64,000 nt of DNA from a candidate division FCPU426 bacterium (lineage in GTDB: Bacteria > Oederibacteriota > Muellerivitia > Muellerivitales > Muellerivitaceae): assembly GCA_963771075.1 (NCBI GenBank), contig CAVYSE010000004.1:1-64000 (forward strand). Reading direction: 5' to 3'. The notes beneath the pieces were generated by a model. That model worked only from the letters and a program-made list of their open reading frames with translations. It did no database searches and was not told the DNA's origin. A program made the position numbers and the translations under genes. How positions within the stretch are numbered: the first letter of the stretch is position 1; every line of letters begins with the position of its first letter. Below are positions 1 through 9,853 of this stretch, piece by piece.

Positions 1-205
1 GTTGGCGGCGGGGGTTTCCAACAATAAGTGATAGTGATTCTCCATCAAAACCCAGGCATGGCAATGCAAATAATATAACAACTTCAGCGAGTATTTTCAG
101 GAATAAACAACGATCTGAATCATCAAACACGATCTTCTCGTTCATTCCCTCGGGAAGTGACGTGATAAACAGCACCTTCATAATGGATTCTTTTTGCTCG
201 GGGCA
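1..205 (-). pseudogene. Y1 (IS200/RAYT-type) HUH transposase, 5' part, frameshifted; runs off the window edge
   Basis: Manual minus-strand translation gives three segments in shifted frames: ARAKRIHYEGAVYHVTSRGNER / IVFDDSDRCLFLKILAEVV / LHCHAWVLMENHYHLLLETPAAN. These match the YHVTSRGN and MxNHYH (HUH) motifs of RAYT-like transposases. Confidence 0.85.
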
Positions 206-297
206 TGGCGGAATCTTATCAAATACCGAATTGGTTTTAAGTGTTATGTGTTGGCCTGACCCTTATTACTTTCAGACTTCCCGAAAACCCATTCCGA

Positions 298-969
298 CTA
301 ATTTTTTAGCTTTAAGCGGTTCAGGTCTTTCGCCAGTAAATCCAAATCGGTCCGGTATTTCGGGTTGAATTTCACCGGTCCATAGACCGGAACGGCCAAA
401 AGCTTCCGCAGGACCAGGGCGTTCGACTTTTCCGACAGTTCTTTCCCCTTGTAGCCGTTCAATACCACGCCCAACACTTTGACCTCGCGCCTTTGAAGGG
501 CGTTCACCGTGAGCAGGGTGTGGTTGATCGTCCCCAGCCCCGCGCGGGCCACCACCAGCGTGGGCAATTTCCAGTTCACGATCCAGTCGATCGCGGAGAA
601 GTTACGGGTAATGGGCACCAAAACCCCGCCGATCCCCTCCACCACCACGCGGTCGTATTTCTTCAGGGCCTTATGAAAAGCCTTTTCGATCTTGGCGAGC
701 GGCACCGCGCCTTCTTTCCACGAGGCGGAAAAGGGGGCCAGGGGCTGTTTGAAATGGACGGGTACGATTTCGGGATAGGCGGAATCGGGCAATTTGGCGG
801 CTTTTTGCAGGAGCTTACCGTCTTCGCTGGGGTTACCGCCCGTCGCGACAGGCTTCAGGACCCCCACTTGGACGCCCCGGTTCACGAGCATCCGGGTGAT
901 GCCGGCGGCAATGAGGGTTTTACCGACTCCGGTATCGGTCCCACATACAAACATACCCATTTTAAACAT
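298..969 (-). CDS. bioD: Dethiobiotin synthetase (start may be ATG at 960)
   Basis: GTDTGVGKT P-loop, KPVATG, VVEGIGG, LGTINHTLLT motifs. Confidence 0.95.
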   Translation of the reverse strand: MFKMGMFVCGTDTGVGKTLIAAGITRMLVNRGVQVGVLKPVATGGNPSEDGKLLQKAAKLPDSAYPEIVPVHFKQPLAPFSASWKEGAVPLAKIEKAFHKALKKYDRVVVEGIGGVLVPITRNFSAIDWIVNWKLPTLVVARAGLGTINHTLLTVNALQRREVKVLGVVLNGYKGKELSEKSNALVLRKLLAVPVYGPVKFNPKYRTDLDLLAKDLNRLKLKN

Positions 970-984
970 TGGGGCTTACCAACT

Positions 985-1794
985 CTAATAAGCATTTTTT
1001 ACTAGTTGTTTTTCTTCGTATGAAAATTGCGTTCTTAGAAATTTGAAGAATTCGATCAATTCACCTTCTTTATAAACCTTCACACTAGGTCTAAGACGCG
1101 GCATGCTCTCAGCAAGATTTTTCCAATGTTTATCAAGTAGTACGATATCGGAATATGCGAGATTAACAACAGAATGAAAAAAATCAGTTACATCATTATC
1201 TTTAAACTGATCCTGTCTCGAAAATATGCTCTTAGCAGACCACTAAAAACAGCTCTGCAAAAACGCCTCTCCTCATAAGCTTTAATTATTATCTTTTTAT
1301 ACAATTCAAGAATAGTTTTACTCTTTGCAAATTCAACTCTCGATTCACTCAATAATGGTCTTTATTTCTCTTTGATTATCTTCCTTTTTTTTTAAATCTT
1401 CTCGATTTGCATTAACCAAATCTATAATTCGCGATAGCGTAAGTGGCCCACCATGAATTATCGGATAATACATTTTTAAAAAATCAATATCGACCCAGGG
1501 CGGAGAATTAGAAAAATTCGGATTCTCTTCATCTCGCATCACCGGCCCGGGACTCATTCTGGCCAAGGCCCACTGTTCACCAATTTCACTTAAAAATGAT
1601 TTTATTTCATCTAAAGAGCGCCCGTCGTCTTGACCAACAATGTCCAAGACATTTGCCCACGAAAATACAAGCGTTCCTTTACAACGGAAAAAACTTAAAA
1701 ATATGAACCTAAAATTATCTTCAGAAGAGATTCGTCTTAACGCCCAATGATCTAAGTGAATTGCTGGTTTTCTGATTTTTATATCAACATTCAA
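985..1794 (-). pseudogene. AT-rich, frameshifted PIN-like domain gene inserted between bioF and bioD
   Basis: ORF 1345..1794 starts IHLDHWAL. After frameshifts the reading resumes with FKDNDVTDFFHSVVNLAYSDIVLLDKHW and stops at 985. The acidic residue pattern is PIN-like and GC is far below the flanks. Confidence 0.55.
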
Positions 1795-1853
1795 AAGTCT
1801 TTTTGTTTAGTAACAATAATCATAAAGAATGTTCATAGAGTTAATTGCTAACA

Positions 1854-3008
1854 TTAAAGTTTCTTAAATGCATTGAATAACTTCCCGATATCCGCATCCG
1901 TATGCGCCCCGGAAACGGACAACCTCAAGCGGGCCGTGCCCTTGGGAACCGTGGGCGGGCGGATGGCCACCACAAGAACGCCTTCTTCCAGGAGTTTTTC
2001 GGACATCTTCAGCGCTTCCTCGTTTTCCCCCACGATAATGGGCATGATGGGCCCCGCGCCTCGGGGGATCTCATAACCCAAGGCCCTCAAACCCTCCCGT
2101 ACCTTCTTGGCGTTTTCCCAAAGCGTTTCGACCCTTTGGGGTTCCTGCTGTAAAACCTCCAGCGCCCCCAGGGAGGCCCCGCAAACGGCGGGTGCCAACC
2201 CGGTTGTATATATGAAGGTTCGGGCCCGGTTGACCAACGACTCGATGAACAATTTTGGCCCGCAAACAAACCCGCCCATGCTCCCCAGGGCCTTGCTGTA
2301 GGTACCAACGACCACTTGGGGGTGATGGAGCAGGGGAAAATGATGGGTAATGCCCTGCCCGGCGGGGCCCAAAACCCCGGTGCCGTGGGCGTCATCCACC
2401 AGGACCATGGCGTCATATTGGTTCGCCAGGTTCGTCACTTTCAAAAGGGGAACCAGGTCCCCATCCATGCTGAAAAGCGCGTCGGTGACCACCAGCCGGC
2501 GGCGGTATTTGCCCGCCCGGTCCAATTGTTTATGCAGGTCGATCAGATCCAAATGCTCGTAAACGATGAATTTGGCCTTGGAAGCCCGGCAGGCGTCGAT
2601 GAGGCTGGCGTGGTTCAAACGGTCGCACAAAACGGCGTCCTCATCCCCGACCAGTCCGGTCACGGCGGCCAGGTTGGCCATGTAGCCGGTCGGGAAGGCC
2701 AGGCAGGCCTCGGCGCCCTTGAACAGCGCGGTGATTTCTTCCAACTGCATGTGGATGGGGAAATGGCCCGACACCAGCCGGGACGCCTGGGCGGAAGCCC
2801 CGTAACGGACCAGGGCCCTTTGGGACCTTTCCAGGACCTTCGGATGGTCCGCCAGCCCCAGGTAGTTGTTGGTGCAAAAAAGGACGGAGTCTTTTCCGTT
2901 GATGGAGGCCTTCATGCCCCCCAGCGGTTCCACCACGCGCAGGCGCCGCCGGAGGCCCTGGGCGTCCAGTTCGTGGATTTCTTCGTGTAGTTCCTCAAGC
3001 CAACCCAA
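1854..3008 (-). CDS. bioF: 8-amino-7-oxononanoate synthase
   Basis: NNYLGLA, DRLNHASLID, FSMDGD, DDAHGTG, GTYSKALG (PLP lysine), IRPPTVP. Confidence 0.95.
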   Translation of the reverse strand: MGWLEELHEEIHELDAQGLRRRLRVVEPLGGMKASINGKDSVLFCTNNYLGLADHPKVLERSQRALVRYGASAQASRLVSGHFPIHMQLEEITALFKGAEACLAFPTGYMANLAAVTGLVGDEDAVLCDRLNHASLIDACRASKAKFIVYEHLDLIDLHKQLDRAGKYRRRLVVTDALFSMDGDLVPLLKVTNLANQYDAMVLVDDAHGTGVLGPAGQGITHHFPLLHHPQVVVGTYSKALGSMGGFVCGPKLFIESLVNRARTFIYTTGLAPAVCGASLGALEVLQQEPQRVETLWENAKKVREGLRALGYEIPRGAGPIMPIIVGENEEALKMSEKLLEEGVLVVAIRPPTVPKGTARLRLSVSGAHTDADIGKLFNAFKKL

Positions 3009-3081
3009 GAGATGCCTCAGTTATTCTTTGATCGAGTTTACGAATTTCCTTGTCCGTTCTGGCCCGCCCTGATTAAGTGAA

Positions 3082-3111
3082 GCTCAGCGAATGGGTCCCT
3101 GCCATGGCAAA
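3082..3111. repeat. Degenerate copy of the 30-bp 12-6-12 element
   Basis: GCTCAGCGAATG-GGTCCC-TGCCATGGCAAA: consensus spacer and a partial right arm, 17 bp from the hicA stop. Confidence 0.4.
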
Positions 3112-3128
3112 CAATATCGGAAAAAGTT

Positions 3129-3374
3129 CTAATTTCCGAATAATTTTAGGAGTACTTCCTGGCGGTCTAATTTGAGATGTTCAGCAACGTCCGAAAGTAT
3201 TGCTGACAATGTGCCGGTCCTGAGGGGGTTATGGGCGGGGATGGTAATGTGATGCTGGCCATTTTGGATCGTCGTCAACCGCATGTGGCTTCCGGTTTGG
3301 CGGGTGATTTCATAACCGAAAACTTTAAGTTCTTTGGCAAGGTCTTCTCCCGACAAGTTTCTCGGGAGCCTCAT
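3129..3374 (-). CDS. hicA: HicA-family mRNA interferase toxin
   Basis: 81 aa, RQTGSHMRL ... ITIPAH ... GTLSAIL. Confidence 0.9.
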   Translation of the reverse strand: MRLPRNLSGEDLAKELKVFGYEITRQTGSHMRLTTIQNGQHHITIPAHNPLRTGTLSAILSDVAEHLKLDRQEVLLKLFGN

Positions 3375-3577
3375 ACCGCGATGGTTTCCTCACGCACAAA
3401 ATGGAGCCGGATGACCTTAGGCATCTTATTTTCTTCAAAATGGCATTTAACCGCGTCACGAATCTGACCGTGAAGCTGGTCAAGGTTGTCGGCTTCGGTA
3501 AAAATGGATTCACCCAAAGCGCGGGCTATATAGCCCCCTTCCGGCGAATCTTCGATCATAAAAATCAACTCGTTCAT
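3371..3577 (-). CDS. hicB: Short HicB-like antitoxin
   Basis: 68 aa, EGGYIARALGESIFTEADNLDQL...IRDAV; ATGA overlap with hicA. Confidence 0.8.
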   Translation of the reverse strand: MNELIFMIEDSPEGGYIARALGESIFTEADNLDQLHGQIRDAVKCHFEENKMPKVIRLHFVREETIAV

Positions 3578-3670
3578 GACAACCTCCAGAAGGCATTATA
3601 TAAAAGGTATTGGCTTTAAACGACAACCCCATTTGGTCCATTTATTTAAGGGCATTTAAGCCGTTTTTCT

Positions 3671-3700
3671 TTGTCCACATAAGGTTCCCGCCTTGGACAA
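3671..3700. repeat. 30-bp 12-6-12 palindromic element
   Basis: TTGTCCACATAA-GGTTCC-CGCCTTGGACAA. Confidence 0.85.
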
Positions 3701-3805
3701 ACCGGGCCGGTCTCATTTTCCACTGGTTCCAAATGCTGGATCAGTCTTATGAATCACATCACTAAGACCAACTTGGTGCCTTGGTGGTAATGATTGGCGT
3801 TGTCT

Positions 3806-4988
3806 TTAGATCCTAGAAAATATCACCGCGCCTAATTGTCCCCCAAACCCATATGAAAGAGAAAGTGTGTGGTCCACCTTTTCTTTCACGCCCCCCTCGG
3901 GCACCAGCTTGATCCGGCATTCAGGGTCTTGGTGCCGCAGGCCCCGGTTGGGCGGCAGCTGCCCCTCGGCCAGGGCCATGACGCAAAGGACGGCTTCCAC
4001 GCTTCCCGCCGCGCCCAAGAGGTGCCCCGTCGAACCCTTGGTGGAACTCACCCAGGGCCGGTCCCCGAAGACCTCAAAGAGGGCCTTGGATTCCACCCGG
4101 TCGTTGAACCGGGTTCCGGTTCCGTGGGCGTTAATATAGCCGATATCCTGGGGGCGAAGGCCCGCCCTTTCCAGGGCCAGGCGGATCAGGTGGACGATCG
4201 TCTTACCCGTGGGGTCCACTTCCAAGGCCGCGTGGGCGTCCCCCACCAGGGCCCAGCCGCTGAGCCGCGCCAATGGCGTTCGCCTTTCTTTTTTTCGCCC
4301 TCCCCTCGTTTTCAACGATCAAGACCCCCGCGCCTTCGCCCATGATGAAACCGTCCCGCTGGGTGTCAAAGGGAGAGGGGCCATCGGCCTTCTCGCTCAT
4401 CAAACCCATCCGCTGGAACCCGGCATAAATGAGGGGGTGGATGGAGGATTCGGTGCTTCCCGCCACTACCGCGTCGCAATCCCCCGAAAGGATCATGCGG
4501 GCGGCCATGGCCAGGCTTCCGATTCCCGTGGAACAGGCGGAGGATACCGATAGGGCGGGCCCGGAAAAACCGAATTCCTGGGCGAGTAGACACCCCGCCG
4601 CGTGGGGGAAAAAGTCGGAAAGGAAATCCCAATCGACCTGGCTGGGATCCCCGGCCGCTTCCAGCAGGCTCCACAGGCCGCCCTTACTGGAGGAGAAGGT
4701 GGTGCCGATCTTTCCGGGCGCCACCCGAAAGAGGTTTCCCTGTTTCCAAGCCTCATAGGCGGCCACATAGCCCAATTGCAGGGACCGGTCGCGGGTCAGG
4801 AACCTTTGGGGTATCCAAACCTCCAGGGCCTGGGCCGCGCGGGGCCAAAAAAAGCCCTTCCACTCGGGGCCCTTGAGGAAGGTGTGGGCCCAATCCCCTG
4901 CCATGATCCTGGAAAAGGTCATGGGGGCATCCGCGCCCAGGGGGGTGACCATGCCATAGCCCGTGATAACCAGAGGGGTCATAGCCAT
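3806..4988 (-). pseudogene. fabF: FabF-like beta-ketoacyl-ACP synthase split by a single +1 frameshift near 4280-4295 (real or sequencing error)
   Basis: N-terminal ORF has SSACSTG (catalytic Cys), PFD..RDGFIMGEGAG. C-terminal ORF has INAHGTGT, STKGSTGHLLGAAG, SYGFGG. Confidence 0.85.
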
Positions 4989-5710
4989 CCCGGCAGGCGG
5001 GAATCCAAATTAAAGACCTGGCCCGATATGTTGCGCGTGGAGGCCAGCCAAAGGAAGAAGGAACAAACCTCGTCCAGGTCCGCGCTTTTGCCCAGCAGGT
5101 GACGGGAGAGGATGGCGGCTTCGGCCTCGGGTGTGAGGCCCTCGGCCAGCCTGGTCTTGTGGAATCCGGGGTTCACCACGTTCACCCGGATGTCGCGGGA
5201 GCCGTATTCTTGCGCCAGGCTCCGGGCCAGCCCCACCAGCCCCGCCTTGGCGGAGGTGTAGGCCGCCTGCCCGATATTGCCCGTCGAGGCAACGATGGAT
5301 GAAATGAAAATGATCTGCCCCCCTTCCTGCTTCATCAGGGGTTTCAAGAGGGTTTGGGAAAGGTGGAAGGCCCCCTTCAAGTGGACTTGCAGGGTTTCGT
5401 CCCATTGCGCTTCTTCGATGTTGAGGATGCGCGCGTTATGCGTGACCCCGGCGTTATGGATGGCGCATTCAATCGTTGTCCGGCGCCCCAAAACGTCTTG
5501 GACCCAGGCTTGGACTTCGGAGGCCCGGGCCACGTCGCAGCGGGTGATTTCGCAGGCGGGATTGATCTTCTTCAGGGTTTCCCTGGCATGGGAGGCCGAC
5601 GCCTCGTCCTGGTGGTAGCAGGCTTCGACCGCCCAGCCCTTTTGGGCGAAGGCCTGGGCCAAAGCGAAGCCGATGCCCCGCGTACCGCCGGTGATTAAGA
5701 TTGTAGGCAT
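4979..5710 (-). CDS. fabG: 3-oxoacyl-ACP reductase, SDR family (ORF track start 5716)
   Basis: TGGTRGIG, HNAG, SS, GNIGQAAYTSAK (YxxxK), NVVNPG. Confidence 0.85.
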   Translation of the reverse strand: MPTILITGGTRGIGFALAQAFAQKGWAVEACYHQDEASASHARETLKKINPACEITRCDVARASEVQAWVQDVLGRRTTIECAIHNAGVTHNARILNIEEAQWDETLQVHLKGAFHLSQTLLKPLMKQEGGQIIFISSIVASTGNIGQAAYTSAKAGLVGLARSLAQEYGSRDIRVNVVNPGFHKTRLAEGLTPEAEAAILSRHLLGKSADLDEVCSFFLWLASTRNISGQVFNLDSRLPGWL

Positions 5711-5736
5711 CTGCAATGGCTCCCCATTGTGGACAG
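5707..5736. repeat. 30-bp 12-6-12 element, left arm overlapping the fabG start
   Basis: GCATCTGCAATG-GCTCCC-CATTGTGGACAG. Confidence 0.7.
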
Positions 5737-5745
5737 ATTTTTCCG

Positions 5746-6090
5746 TTATTCTAATAAAACGATTTTGAGATTTTCTATTAACTTCACCTTATCCAATGGG
5801 CCTAACTCACCCAAGTGTGCCACAAAACGGCGATTATCAATCGCCCTAATTTGATCGACTAATATGTCGGAATCTTTTTTAAGGCCGTTTCCTTTTTTGG
5901 AAAGGTGAACTCGCAGGATATCAGCTCCAGGGATAATTTTGGTGGTGATGGGACAAATAATGGTACTGGGGTGTTGCCCGTCATTTAAAAGGTTGGTTTG
6001 GATAACAACAATCGGCCTGGTCTTGCCGGACTTGGTACCGAAACGCGGGCTTAGGTCTGCCAGGTACAGGTTGAATTTCCTGATCTTCAT
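5746..6090 (-). CDS. mazF: PemK/MazF-family endoribonuclease toxin
   Basis: LADLSPRFGTKSGKTRPIVVIQ, ICPITT, DQIRAIDNRR. Confidence 0.92.
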   Translation of the reverse strand: MKIRKFNLYLADLSPRFGTKSGKTRPIVVIQTNLLNDGQHPSTIICPITTKIIPGADILRVHLSKKGNGLKKDSDILVDQIRAIDNRRFVAHLGELGPLDKVKLIENLKIVLLE

Positions 6091-6326
6091 TCGATGGTTG
6101 CTTCCTCGAGTTTTTCCATCTCACTCAGGATGTCCATGGAGTTCTTGCGGGTGAGCAGGGATTCCTTCAGCAGCTTTTTCCTGAGCCCTTTTCGGCGGTT
6201 GAATTCATTGTAAAAACTCAGCGCCTCGTTGATATAGGCGTTTCGCGGCATCTGAAGTGCCTTGGTGATGGTTTCAACATCCTCGAAAATCTCACCTTTT
6301 ATTTTAAGCGACAGGACTTTGGTCAT
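6087..6326 (-). CDS. Ribbon-helix-helix antitoxin partner of MazF
   Basis: 79 aa, KVLSLKI...MPRNAYINEAL; ATGA overlap with the toxin. Confidence 0.8.
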   Translation of the reverse strand: MTKVLSLKIKGEIFEDVETITKALQMPRNAYINEALSFYNEFNRRKGLRKKLLKESLLTRKNSMDILSEMEKLEEATIE

Positions 6327-6339
6327 TTTTCAGCACCTC

Positions 6340-6370
6340 AAAAGGTATATACTTATAGTATATACCTTTT
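6340..6370. promoter_or_regulatory. Perfect palindrome, likely antitoxin operator
   Basis: AAAAGGTATATACT-TAT-AGTATATACCTTTT, 14 bp upstream of the antitoxin start. Confidence 0.75.
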
Positions 6371-6402
6371 TTGTTTGAAGGAGGAAATGATTGCTTAATG
6401 GT

Positions 6403-6432
6403 TTGTCCAAGACGGGACCTCGTCGTGGACAA
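6403..6432. repeat. 30-bp 12-6-12 element (most symmetric copy)
   Basis: TTGTCCAAGACG-GGACCT-CGTCGTGGACAA, arms 11/12 complementary. Confidence 0.9.
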
Positions 6433-6437
6433 GAATT

Positions 6438-6968
6438 TTATTTTTGGGGTTTGAACTGTATGGGTGGAATGGATTCGGTATTGGCGTCCAGGACCATCAG
6501 ACCACCGTTCGTATTCTTGGTGTCAGCGGGATAAAATCGGATCACCTTTAACGCCGTCATTTTAAATACATAATTGGTTTTCCCAGTCGAATCAATCCAT
6601 CTGAATTCGCCGGTGGCATTGGGCGAAGGGCCTTTGCCGGCCTGGTTTTTGGCCCAAAAAACGAAAGGTGGCGGAACATCCGAATCCAGAATGAAAGTCA
6701 TGTATCCGTTTGGATCGCTCCCCGGCTCTTGGACGTTCAACATCTTTCCCTGTTTTTTGAGGGTCATAAGCACAGAAAGGCTGATTCCCTTATAAGATTT
6801 GATCGGCACTTCAAAGGTTTGGCCATCCGGCGTGGATATGTGGAGATAATTTTTAGAAACCTTGCCGGCAGGTACGGGTGTTGGATCAGTCCCCGCCAAG
6901 GCAGTGCCAGAGAAAATCATAAAAAATCCGACACTCAAGCCTACGAAAAGCTTCAAATTATTTTTCAT
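6438..6968 (-). CDS. Secreted hypothetical protein
   Basis: Signal peptide MKNNLKLFVGLSVGFFMIFSGTALA; no family recognised. Confidence 0.7.
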   Translation of the reverse strand: MKNNLKLFVGLSVGFFMIFSGTALAGTDPTPVPAGKVSKNYLHISTPDGQTFEVPIKSYKGISLSVLMTLKKQGKMLNVQEPGSDPNGYMTFILDSDVPPPFVFWAKNQAGKGPSPNATGEFRWIDSTGKTNYVFKMTALKVIRFYPADTKNTNGGLMVLDANTESIPPIQFKPQK

Positions 6969-7034
6969 TTTCCGCCTCTTTCTCTGTTCACGATGGGCCA
7001 TTATTGTTGACAACCGAATTAGGAATTACCTGAG

Positions 7035-7451
7035 TCAATCCGGTATGGCAAGCGGCACTACTTGTCGGCCGTTTCTCCGATAAACTCTAAAATCACTATC
7101 CAGGGTTAAAACAATGGATTTAGGGTCCAACTCGGACATTTTAACGAGGCAGGCATCCGCCAAGGACATGGGCACGCTGGAATATCTAGTCATTAGGACC
7201 TCAACAGCGGTCAAGTGGGGTTCCAATCGAAAAGATAGGTCCAGTACACCGCGATCCAATAGACCAAACACCGCCTGGGCGCCACCTTTCATCCCACGCA
7301 CTAAAAAACAAGCTTCAGAAATAACCGGCTCGCAGGTCGCCAGCGGCGGATCAATGGATTCGAAAAGTTCGCGGGCCCAAGCGTGATAGTGATCTCGGCT
7401 GTTCAGGAGCGCGACAATGGGGCCCGTGTCAACAATGTAGTTTTGTTTCAT
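7035..7451 (-). CDS. vapC: VapC/PIN-domain toxin
   Basis: IVDTGPIVA, VISEA, SLADACLV, LTLDSDF. Confidence 0.92.
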   Translation of the reverse strand: MKQNYIVDTGPIVALLNSRDHYHAWARELFESIDPPLATCEPVISEACFLVRGMKGGAQAVFGLLDRGVLDLSFRLEPHLTAVEVLMTRYSSVPMSLADACLVKMSELDPKSIVLTLDSDFRVYRRNGRQVVPLAIPD

Positions 7452-7675
7452 TCACCATACCCGCGCATGTGCTTGGGCGCGGTGGCTAAATCGGAGGCAC
7501 CACGGAGTGCTCCTACCAATTCCCCCGCTAAATCAGCCGCGGAACGTTTACGCTGTCCGGCAAGACCGTTCAAAGCTTCCCTCAAAACGGCAGACCGGCT
7601 GATATGTCGCTTCCGGGCCAAGGTATCCAATTCCAGCTCCAGGGATTCAGGTATTTTAACGGTAATCGTCTTCAT
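7448..7675 (-). CDS. CopG/RHH antitoxin
   Basis: MKTITVKIPE...ISRSAVLREAL ... DLATAPKHMRGYGE; overlaps the vapC start. Confidence 0.85.
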   Translation of the reverse strand: MKTITVKIPESLELELDTLARKRHISRSAVLREALNGLAGQRKRSAADLAGELVGALRGASDLATAPKHMRGYGE

Positions 7676-7819
7676 GCGGTCCTCCAAAGGTAATACGGTT
7701 ATGTCATTATGGTAACACGATGTCTTTGGCCTCATCAAGAGGGAACATATTCCCCGTTTTGAAGCTTTGCACCGCGCTGTGGATTTGTAGGCTCACCCAC
7801 GTGGAAAGACTCTCTTACC

Positions 7820-7849
7820 TTGTTCACTCCGGGTCCCCGTCGTGGACTT
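7820..7849. repeat. 30-bp 12-6-12 element
   Basis: TTGTTCACTCCG-GGTCCC-CGTCGTGGACTT. Confidence 0.85.
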
Positions 7850-7852
7850 TGT

Positions 7853-8200
7853 TTAGTGGGCCTTTAAAACCCTACGTTGATCGAAAGGGTTGAAGCCGAA
7901 AGGCTTGCAAATCTTTAGGATGCTTCCAAACTTCGGGTCTCTATTTTTGGCGAGTACCCGATAGACACTCTCCCGAGGCATACCCGATTGTTTCGACAAC
8001 CATCCCACCCCACCATGGGCTTCCGCGACATCCCGGAGAGCAAGCTGGAAAACAGATCCGTTGCCGTCGTCTAAGCTTCGATCATAGGCTTCGCGCAAAT
8101 ATTCCCGAGCTTCTTTTGGATCGCTTAGTTTTGAAAGGAGGTAATCTTTAAAATCCCCTTCCGCTTGGTATTTCTTTTTCTTAATGGCTGTGTTTTTCAT
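7853..8200 (-). CDS. Addiction-module antidote (HigA-like HTH antitoxin)
   Basis: ALRDVAEAHGGVGWLSKQSGMPRESVYRVLAKNRDPKFGSI; GGGGG RBS before ATG 8200. Confidence 0.88.
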   Translation of the reverse strand: MKNTAIKKKKYQAEGDFKDYLLSKLSDPKEAREYLREAYDRSLDDGNGSVFQLALRDVAEAHGGVGWLSKQSGMPRESVYRVLAKNRDPKFGSILKICKPFGFNPFDQRRVLKAH

Positions 8201-8210
8201 GTTGCCCCCC

Positions 8211-8540
8211 TTATTCATTTCTCGCTTTGTGGTCTTCCATGTATTTACGTGCGGTTGCGATATCCCTGTCTTGACCCCTTTTTGTTCCTCCACTCAATAG
8301 CAAGACGATGAAACCCCTGGCCCAGGTGTAATAAACCCTATAACCTGGTCCCATGTTGATTTTGATTTCGTGAAGACCACCGCCTTTGTTCTCGCAATTA
8401 CTAAAGTTTCCTTCCCTAACTCGGCCGATGTAGGTGAGAACTGTAGCGCGCGGTCCCCGATCCAACGAATCCAACCATTCTCGAACAGGGTATTTGCCGT
8501 CCTTCGTCAGATAATCCTTCATGCCTTGAGGTTTATCCAT
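8211..8540 (-). CDS. RelE/HigB-family addiction-module killer toxin
   Basis: GKYPVREWLDSL, GNFSN, GLHEIKINMGPGYRVYY, LLLSGGTKRGQDRDI. Confidence 0.9.
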   Translation of the reverse strand: MDKPQGMKDYLTKDGKYPVREWLDSLDRGPRATVLTYIGRVREGNFSNCENKGGGLHEIKINMGPGYRVYYTWARGFIVLLLSGGTKRGQDRDIATARKYMEDHKARNE

Positions 8541-8548
8541 ACGTTAAA

Positions 8549-8566
8549 TGTAACACTTGTGTTACA
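8549..8566. promoter_or_regulatory. Palindromic operator upstream of the killer gene
   Basis: TGTAACAC-TT-GTGTTACA, 9 bp from the ATG. Confidence 0.7.
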
Positions 8567-8582
8567 ACCTTTCAATAGTTTA

Positions 8583-8612
8583 TTGTTCCTTATGGGTCCC
8601 CGTTGTGGACAA
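8583..8612. repeat. 30-bp 12-6-12 element
   Basis: TTGTTCCTTATG-GGTCCC-CGTTGTGGACAA. Confidence 0.85.
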
Positions 8613-8617
8613 CCTTT

Positions 8618-8932
8618 CTAGCTCGCCTTGCGGAAATCAAACGTTATACCCAAATGGGCTCCACAGGCAGCCGCAATTTTTCGAAGAAAACTTAAGGAGG
8701 GCACCGAACGATAGACACCACTTTCCACACTGGAGATGGCACTTTGCTTGGTTCCTATCCTTTTGGCCAAAGCCGCCTGGCTCAAACCCGCATGCTCCCG
8801 CGCTTTCTTAATTGCCGTGGCCATGTGGAATTTTTCTTCCTGCTGTTTAATCAAAATAGCGACCTTCGGATCTTTCTCAAGTTTCTTGAAAAAGTCTGAC
8901 GGGTCGTAATAGGGCTTACTCGCTTTTTTCAT
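8618..8932 (-). CDS. Xre/HTH antitoxin (HigA-type)
   Basis: AREHAGLSQAALAKRIGTKQSAISSVESG...PSLSFLRKIAAACG. Confidence 0.88.
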   Translation of the reverse strand: MKKASKPYYDPSDFFKKLEKDPKVAILIKQQEEKFHMATAIKKAREHAGLSQAALAKRIGTKQSAISSVESGVYRSVPSLSFLRKIAAACGAHLGITFDFRKAS

Positions 8933-8984
8933 GGTTCATAATCTCCTTCATCCGCTTTAGGGCGATATCCAAATCGTTGGCCAT
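8916..8984 (-). pseudogene. 22-aa remnant of a HigB/Gp49-like toxin
   Basis: MANDLDIALKRMKEIMNHEKSE resembles the terminal helix of such toxins and overlaps the antitoxin start as a toxin gene would. Confidence 0.6.
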
Positions 8985-9055
8985 GGAAACCAATTTAGTA
9001 ATTTTTTCAAAGATTGAACCATTTATGTACTTTCCCTTAATTGTACAGCTTCACC

Positions 9056-9085
9056 TTGTCAAAGACGGATACCCATCTTGGACAC
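9056..9085. repeat. 30-bp 12-6-12 element (rightmost copy)
   Basis: TTGTCAAAGACG-GATACC-CATCTTGGACAC. Confidence 0.8.
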
Positions 9086-9109
9086 CTTGATTCGAAACTT
9101 TCCTTCCGC

Positions 9110-9853
9110 CTATATCTGGATCTTGGAAAAAAGCCAGCTTCCCAACACGAGGAAAGCCGCACAAAAGAGCCCCAGCACCGCGAAGTCCGTTCCCATCCCA
9201 TAAAAGGATTCCCCGCCAAAGGAAGCGCGCAGGGCGTCCACCCCGTAGGCCAGGGGGTTCAGGGAAGCCGTGATCGTCAGGCCGGGGCCCGCCCCCTTCA
9301 GGGGAAAGATGGCGCCCGAAAAGAAGAACATGGGCATGACCAGGAAGTTCATCACGAGCGGGAAAGCCTGCATATCGTTCAACTGGGAAGCGAGGGCCGT
9401 CCCGAAGGCCGTGAAGTTGACGGCCACCAGGAACATGATGAGGAAGCTCAACGGAAGGGATTGGAGGTCGGGGCGGAACCCGAACAAACAGGAGAGGGCC
9501 AGCACGATCAGGCCCTGGAACATGGCCACCGTGGCGCCCCCCAGGGTGCGGCCCACCATGATGTTGAGCCGGGAAACGGGCGCCACCAGGGTTTCCTTGA
9601 GAAAGCCGAACTGGCGGTCCCAGATGATCTCGATCCCGGAAAAGACCGACGTGAACAGGACGGCCATGCAAACGACCCCCGGGGCCAGGAACTGCAGGTA
9701 GTTCCCCGATCCCGCCTTTTCGTAGATCTTCCCGAAACCGAAGCCAAAGGCGACCAGGAAGATCAGGGGCTGGCCGAGGGAGCCGATCATCCGGGGTTTG
9801 GAGCGGAAATAACGCTTCAACTGGCGCAGCCACATGATGTACAGGGTATCCAT
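9110..9853 (-). CDS. ABC-2 type exporter permease (DrrB-like)
   Basis: MDTLYIMWLRQLKRYFR, FLAPG, DRQFGFLKETLVAP, FFSGAIFP, NPLAYGVD; GGAGG RBS supports start 9853. Confidence 0.92.
   Translation of the reverse strand: MDTLYIMWLRQLKRYFRSKPRMIGSLGQPLIFLVAFGFGFGKIYEKAGSGNYLQFLAPGVVCMAVLFTSVFSGIEIIWDRQFGFLKETLVAPVSRLNIMVGRTLGGATVAMFQGLIVLALSCLFGFRPDLQSLPLSFLIMFLVAVNFTAFGTALASQLNDMQAFPLVMNFLVMPMFFFSGAIFPLKGAGPGLTITASLNPLAYGVDALRASFGGESFYGMGTDFAVLGLFCAAFLVLGSWLFSKIQI

Follow-up and report, generated by a model that had tools for sequence, protein, structure and literature searches.

The locus and its genes

The subject of this report is a row of small accessory gene units, toxin-antitoxin (TA) pairs among them, which are separated by copies of a 30-bp palindrome near the left end of a 64,000-nucleotide stretch of DNA (the window, part of contig C4) from G000, the genome of an uncultured soil or bog bacterium. 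An earlier, sequence-only reading had proposed an uncharacterised site-specific cassette system, distinct from attC and dif, with a recombinase acting in trans on this array. The computational follow-up supports that proposal and sets the system apart from repetitive extragenic palindrome (REP) elements too. The palindrome is read here, with a probability of about 70%, as a double-stranded target at which a shortened large serine recombinase recombines the cassettes.

The six elements first noticed, with their 6-bp centres, were confirmed at 3671, 5707, 6403, 7820, 8583 and 9056. They reach 23-39 bits on a matrix trained on these six copies and iterated over the genome, which yielded 98 strong copies. 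All six score best on the + strand and thus point the same way, as had been noted; for 9056 (symmetric TA core) and 6403 the orientation comes from the arms alone. The consensus is about TTGTCCACGATGGG-TC-CCCGTCGTGGACAA, with TC as the core in 90 of the 98 strong copies. The geometry is 14-2-14 and not the 12-6-12 originally assumed, because the GG and CC of the supposed 6-bp spacer are complementary; moreover, positions 13-14 are lost in hybrid sites in which TC is kept. A 14-2-14 site suits serine recombinases better than tyrosine recombinases.

The array proper, flanked by fabG and an ABC permease gene, spans 5707 to 9085 (in this and the following paragraph, genes given with coordinates lie on the - strand and sites on the + strand). 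Its left end is a hybrid site (5707..5736) in which TC and the right arm are intact and the left arm is replaced by the fabG start region (0.3 bits on the left, 3.8 in the core, 18.6 on the right); on the gene strand its core resembles a ribosome-binding site and lies 12 nt upstream of the fabG ATG. A mazEF-like cassette (5746..6326; PemK/MazF, PF02452) is followed by a site with a decayed AC core (6403..6432, 39 bits) and by an open reading frame (ORF) of unknown family with, by eye, a signal-peptide-like start (6438..6968; no Pfam or NCBIfam match). A decayed copy with an intact left arm and a CC core (6984..7013), overlooked at first, scores 15.5 bits and has a full site at the matching point in G014, a genome of another genus. 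It separates the secreted gene from a vapBC-like cassette (7035..7675; PIN and RHH in the family scan; 89% nucleotide identity to G014) with which that gene had been counted as one unit. Then come a site with intact TC core (7820..7849, 39 bits), a cassette of RelE/Gp49 toxin and HI1420-type antitoxin (7853..8540, family scan), which alone among the single window cassettes is flanked by TC cores, and another intact TC site (8583..8612, 38 bits). The last cassette holds a helix-turn-helix (HTH) antitoxin-like gene (HTH_3) with a short upstream stub, a candidate toxin (8618..9055), and the array ends in a site with a decayed TA core (9056..9085, 26 bits), 24 bp from the stop of an ABC-2 permease gene.

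To the left lies fabG-fabF (3806..5710), first taken for a cassette, which relatives' loci identify as a native host operon: fabF adjoins bioF-bioD in 9 of the 11 loci compared, fabG too in 8 of these, and the junctions hold no site. The limits of the array follow from the membership of fabG-fabF in this native fabG-fabF-bioF-bioD cluster. A hicA gene with a hicB-like partner (3129..3577; HicA, PF07927), between native fabF and bioF, and the site at 3671..3700 (decayed TT core, 25 bits) are a separate insertion in the host operon; the hicBA junction has no match in the 11 relatives' bioF loci.

At five of the six sites the stop codon of an antisense gene is 3-24 bp away, as had been observed (mazF 9 bp, secreted gene 5, HI1420-type antitoxin 3, HTH gene 5, permease 24); the sixth, 3671, is 105 bp from fabF. 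The impression that the window holds no other copy stood for positions 9086-64000, where the matrix scan gave none above 16 bits, and failed at 6984. The nearest other array (C4:72331-74004) begins 8 kb past the window end. The TA assignments were borne out by the family scan for HicA, PemK/MazF, PIN with RHH, Gp49 with HI1420, and HTH; no family was matched by the hicB-like, mazE-like and secreted ORFs. The names hicB, mazE, vapB and higBA, where a partner matched no family, are presumed from position. TC is kept at 5707, 7820 and 8583, and the four of the seven window sites that have lost it are probably locked.

The junctions of the biotin cluster are insertion hot spots. A genome of the same genus, G001, has four weak sites and a different set of genes upstream of bioF, and between bioF and bioD different accessory genes stand in the G001 locus (L022, 3854-4568; by eye a PIN-type pair) and in the window (975-1850), with no detectable sites. 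Neither at the fabF-bioF junction nor upstream of fabG did relatives show an empty target (best score 4 bits). The fabF gene is frameshifted in the assembly near 4275 (window 4203-4315), and an AT-rich gene between bioF and bioD is broken (1188-1794); contigs of other runs have indels at 4275 (one base fewer in one) and at 1347-1386, and both defects may be assembly errors. Window positions 1-2316 overlap the end of another contig (G000:C21:77260-79590) at 98% identity.

Arrays across the genome and the order

The genome carries 105 sites of at least 16 bits, against 0 in each of three block-shuffled genomes. As many as 94 of them fall into 16 clusters of 2-15 sites, and neighbouring pairs are co-oriented in 75 of 78 cases. 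In 65 of 72 intervals the largest ORF runs antisense to the site. On the gene strand 68 of 98 sites have the end of an ORF no more than 60 bp away, against 19 of 98 on the opposite strand. TA-family genes were counted by hand in 21 of the 76 intervals outside the window, from a Pfam scan of 131 proteins (130 of the 143 listed ORFs and one intron ORF); the remaining intervals hold acetyltransferases, a phosphotransferase, a RibD-like protein and many proteins without a family. The site is carried by 29 of the 32 genomes of the order, with 0 control matches, and by none of 15 genomes from other orders of the phylum. Viral contigs gave no exact match to the site pattern, and among plasmids 138 records were returned, every one below 60% identity (best 32%). 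At G000:C26:136147-144686, at a contig end, three cassettes are duplicated and inverted at 92-100% identity, which is either an assembly artefact or a real inversion.

Such a distribution could also come from a selfish, REP-like repeat that lands after the stops of accessory genes and attracts group II introns and IS110 elements, the sharp boundaries then arising by homologous recombination between copies. About 100 copies per genome close to stop codons fit this, as do the introns and the IS110-family element at site edges, the 20 matches to Y1 transposases (3 within about 1.5 kb of a site) and a TGTC end resembling the CGTC/TGTC tag of one REP superfamily. GTAG- and CGTC-tagged REPs are likewise, in the accessible part of PMC3733652, extragenic palindromes of 20-40 bp in many copies near gene 3' ends. 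According to the same text, however, their tag is unpaired and CGTC elements are mostly head-to-head dimers, whereas here the TGTC end is matched by complementary bases at the far end (71-86 of 94 copies, depending on the position), without compensatory changes, and the copies are co-oriented singletons of strict polarity that bound transferred cassettes. GTAG adjoins 6 of 98 sites, and 0 of the 20 Y1 genes is flanked by sites; against a REP family served by a REP-associated tyrosine transposase (RAYT) also stands the conserved link of the sites to one recombinase clade. Hundreds of randomly oriented copies after housekeeping genes, the picture of an ordinary REP family, were not found; the copies are co-oriented and stand at accessory genes. 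A repeat of this kind is accordingly considered quite improbable.

Still less credible is an operator or terminator common to accessory genes. The palindrome is intergenic and near gene ends, as either would be, but a T-rich tail is present at 2 of 98 sites on the gene strand and at 4 of 98 on the other, the cargo is unrelated, and Rfam gave no match in window positions 2800-9400. Moreover, homology between genomes begins and ends at sites, and the centre is retained in hybrid half-sites. The arms vary independently, which argues against a hairpin: positions 11 and 20 are paired in 37 of 94 copies, just as chance predicts, and none of 18 double changes there restores the pair. A scan with a dif-like motif gave one match at three mismatches, unrelated to the arrays.

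Cassettes as units of transfer

Cassettes are transferred and reordered as units. G014 also has the RelE-type cassette (7820-8583), at 92% identity, in a homology that begins in the core region of site 7820 and stops at site 8583; for the vapBC cassette, homology begins within the 6984 right arm. Between core genes of these two genomes the identity is 65-71%. The window cassettes that are shared have different neighbours in other genera. Of the 14 loci homologous to the mazEF cassette, 7 are flanked by sites on both sides, 4 on one side and 3 on neither, and none of 210 comparisons between their flanks showed shared sequence. Within this genome a BrnTA cassette is present in two arrays at 88% identity.

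Contigs from other samples bear on the expectation that breakpoints would coincide with the elements, although the letters beyond their breaks were unseen. Two break at or next to 5707: one (X2 record 12) matches the window up to 5725, site position 19, and the match of the other (X4 record 26) begins at 5738, just past the site. The match of a third (X2 record 13) ends at 6390, short of site 6403 by 13 bp.

A short serine recombinase beside the sites

The genome has a single match to the resolvase family (PF00239), a 277-aa ORF at G000:C8:80002-80835, which combines the Resolvase and Recombinase domains (PF00239 and PF07508) and has neither zinc ribbon nor coiled coil. Its stop is followed, at 14 bp, by the first site of an array. 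Elsewhere in the genome three 5'-truncated copies of the recombinase also end at a site, and all four copies share the same divergent left arm while their right arms and cassettes differ, which places the exchange before position 20. The 32 genomes hold five intact short genes, in five genera, and a site follows every one (four at 8-34 bp, and one site split by a group II intron). The same arrangement of short gene and site was seen at a metagenome locus (L040), a second metagenome locus ends 22 bp past the stop within sequence like the left arm, and 3' remnants of the recombinase abut sites in G021, G046, G008 and G002. No site was found near any of 125 full-length relatives (1.09 Mb), although this control, to the detriment of the argument, consists mostly of lineages not known to carry the site; nor was there one near 6 close full-length relatives inside the order.

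To judge by its sequence, the short form is natural and derived from full-length large serine recombinases. Its 19 database relatives (275-283 aa) are 68-96% identical, after which identity drops to 58%, and they lack PF13408; the short-form stop sits just ahead of the zinc-ribbon cysteines of full-length kin. In a quick tree of 56 rows the short enzymes form one clade nested among full-length enzymes (SH-like approximate likelihood ratio test, 100). The clade is under purifying selection, with a ratio of nonsynonymous to synonymous substitution rates of 0.07-0.16 in 7 of 10 pairs (the other 3 were saturated), and the YxRVSS motif and the DR and R residues are invariant in 20 of 20 sequences. 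Sequence and fold matches to serine recombinases in the PDB agree with this; the structure model is modest (predicted local distance difference test 67, predicted template modelling score 0.44) and serves for family assignment only.

The gene opposes the polarity of the cassettes and has no site upstream in three long loci (G004, G020, G024), so it does not look like cargo. At G000:C8:76000-92000 (L001) the recombinase and its array lie amid genes for ArdC, DUF2958, HTH and RadC proteins, and G024 has similar upstream ORFs. This suggests that a mobile element spreads the platform.

Hybrid sites and the point of exchange

Across the order, TC and the right arm persist in 48 sites that carry a base other than G at positions 13-14, whereas cores made only of A and T, of whatever kind, number 8 (TT in 5). 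Inspection of 28 sites found a foreign left half in 16, and a foreign left half with TC kept places the junction at 14/15. GGAGG is present on the gene strand in 37 of the 48 sites, and an ORF starts 6-12 nt past the core in 6 of the 16 foreign-left hybrids against 0 of 12 others; site 5707 stands likewise before fabG. These features would point to integration at ribosome-binding sites. Two candidate lines of crossover evidence were dropped: the right flank shared by C5:86948 and C9:3203, which is explained by an IS110 passenger, and left flanks shared via intron copies.

Other elements at the sites

A group II intron (529-aa reverse transcriptase) is present in ten near-identical full copies, each starting at a site edge, at either arm; copies are located on contigs C2, C3, C4 (74692-76675), C5, C6, C9 and C21 of G000. 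The intron that splits the recombinase-proximal site in G020 is a different one. An IS110-family element with subterminal inverted repeats lies directly after the right arm in both its copies (G000:C5:85584-86976 and C9:1839-3231). The family has 10 matches in the genome; apart from these two copies the targets are unlike the site, so IS110-family elements are read as passengers.

Thirteen sites share the same 33-bp insert, which lies immediately to the right of the core, is bounded by 9-bp terminal inverted repeats and comes with a duplication of 4 bp; the result is a 67-bp long form (G000: C3:148658, 149257 and 347197; C5:98257, 102533 and 104268; C11:133944; C20:37138; C26:73626, 130145, 134324, 135890 and 136817). 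A larger parent element was not found, and the insert was not seen among the relatives' loci examined. In the window, a possible but unproven decayed site remnant (3082..3111, + strand) lies 17 bp from the hicA stop; it scores -13.7 bits with 1 of 12 arm pairs, and the 16 nt at its centre align with the long-form site at E = 0.12. The interval 3050-3111 was rejected as a decayed 67-bp long form, the match not being significant.

Proposed mechanism and points against it

Going by the biochemistry of serine recombinases, excision and reinsertion would proceed as follows. A dimer of the short enzyme would bind the two 14-bp arms of a site; two sites would come together, and their strands would be broken and resealed at the central TC/GA dinucleotide. 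Polarity would be set by the asymmetric core, so that co-oriented sites would release a cassette circle with one site, composed of right arm, gene and next left arm. The circle could then insert itself at any of the other sites, or at a chromosomal sequence that matches one half of a site, in many cases a ribosome-binding site. With neither zinc ribbon nor coiled coil, the enzyme would have no attP/attB directionality, and one symmetric site would therefore do for all steps. The window array is read as an old satellite without an enzyme of its own, on which the recombinase would act in trans, and its TA pairs are probably kept because their loss is harmful.

The size of the site agrees with the domains of the enzyme. 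In the available text on LI integrase (PMC3783163) contacts of the recombinase domain and its linker with the half-site reach as far as position 14, and another motif, of 9 bp, is occupied by the zinc domain; an enzyme that ends after the recombinase domain would thus need a site of about 30 bp, as observed.

Several points weigh against this proposal. In the same text, residues 1-264 of LI integrase bind about 25-fold more weakly, and deletion of the coiled coil leaves an unregulated intramolecular resolvase incapable of intermolecular integration (PMC3783163), so reinsertion by the short enzyme alone is not obvious. An intact short recombinase is absent from 27 of the 32 genomes, including the site-rich G002, G003, G018, G041, G008 and G021, and G003 (99% complete), G018 and G041 lack even a remnant. 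In the recombinase domain nonsynonymous differences (pN) reach up to 0.35, against 0.03-0.09 in the catalytic domain, although the site is constant. Of the loci with homologues of window TA genes, 0 of 6 for the HTH gene have a site nearby, and 3 of 4 for the RelE-type cassette show no trace of one; three of the 78 neighbouring pairs are inverted; and the right limit of the crossover is mapped no closer than before position 20. Neither excision joints nor circles, which the sequence-only reading had recommended looking for, were seen in four runs, of which contigs only, at low depth, were available.

Some of these points would suit a real cassette system with another mover, a host tyrosine recombinase or an unrecognised protein, the short enzyme being a passenger or the resolvase of a mobile element that ends in a site. 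The many site-rich genomes without an intact gene, the mobile-element genes around it and the weak binding of truncated LI integrase (PMC3783163) all favour this. However, the enzyme adjoins sites at 8-34 bp over five genera, and the hybrids show the pattern of a 2-bp core. The tyrosine recombinase that had first been suspected also fared poorly: the genome encodes 8, none of them less than 26 kb from a site of at least 16 bits (three of the eight are on contigs without such a site), and the integron integrase model (IntI, TIGR02249) was over its cut-off in 0 of 5 genomes, this one included, while the enzyme that adjoins sites is a serine recombinase. Another mover, or the need for a cofactor, is thought unlikely.

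Comparison with known systems

The arrangement driven by the shortened serine recombinase most resembles integrons and attC-site clusters that have no integron-integrase (CALINs). As far as the accessible part of PMC9024848 goes, both keep the recombinase at the first site and line up single-unit cassettes in one orientation, each with its site behind the gene; both have numerous satellite arrays without an enzyme, a cargo rich in TA pairs and for the most part unknown, and group II introns and IS110-family elements at the sites. They differ in the enzyme, which here is a serine recombinase and not the tyrosine recombinase IntI, and in the single site type, a fixed 30-bp sequence without hairpin covariation where attC is folded and single-stranded; neither IntI nor attC was recognised, GTTRRRY lies within 12 bp of only 5 of 98 sites and the site length is fixed. 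The cassettes here also point towards the recombinase gene, so the cassette-promoter layout of integrons is inapplicable.

The dif modules of Acinetobacter (pdif, XerC/XerD) likewise have short sites, 28 bp against 30 bp here, which bound one gene or TA pair, and are shuffled between replicons (accessible text of PMC13141974). According to that text, however, their XerC and XerD arms differ, their 6-bp spacers have to match and their sites alternate in inverted orientation, whereas here the arms are symmetric, the core is 2 bp, positions 13-14 are dispensable and 75 of 78 pairs are direct.

With the large serine recombinases (LI/A118, TP901-1, SPbeta, Bxb1, phiC31, CcrA/B and XisF) the short enzyme shares the Resolvase and Recombinase domains in the same order. 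Those enzymes exchange strands at a central crossover dinucleotide and use one attP/attB pair of 40-50 bp. In contrast, the system described here has no zinc ribbon, no coiled coil and no directional attP x attB reaction, and its 30-bp symmetric site occurs in about 100 copies that form arrays of small cassettes.

Implications

Integrons, the textbook example of a platform for gene capture, depend on an unusual chemistry of single strands. Opinion is evenly balanced on whether the arrays are a third cassette platform, independent of integrons and dif modules, in which a large serine recombinase minus its directionality domains has become a symmetric, bidirectional shuffler. Carried on a mobile element, it would seed dozens of arrays per genome through one 30-bp site, and its recombination with ribosome-binding sites, in which GGAG mimics the core, would give rise to new cassettes and arrays. 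In the literature searched, as far as listings and the openings of abstracts show, serine-recombinase cassette arrays are not described.

If the proposal is true, the architecture of the integron has been rebuilt with a serine recombinase and a plain double-stranded site, which would be a convergent invention, and attC-based tools would be blind to such arrays. It would also mean that a natural large serine recombinase acts without the domains deemed necessary for tight binding and integration. To our knowledge the genesis of cassettes is still open for integrons, and capture at ribosome-binding sites is suggested here as a concrete route for cassette birth. The arrays also single out TA pairs and many genes of unknown family.

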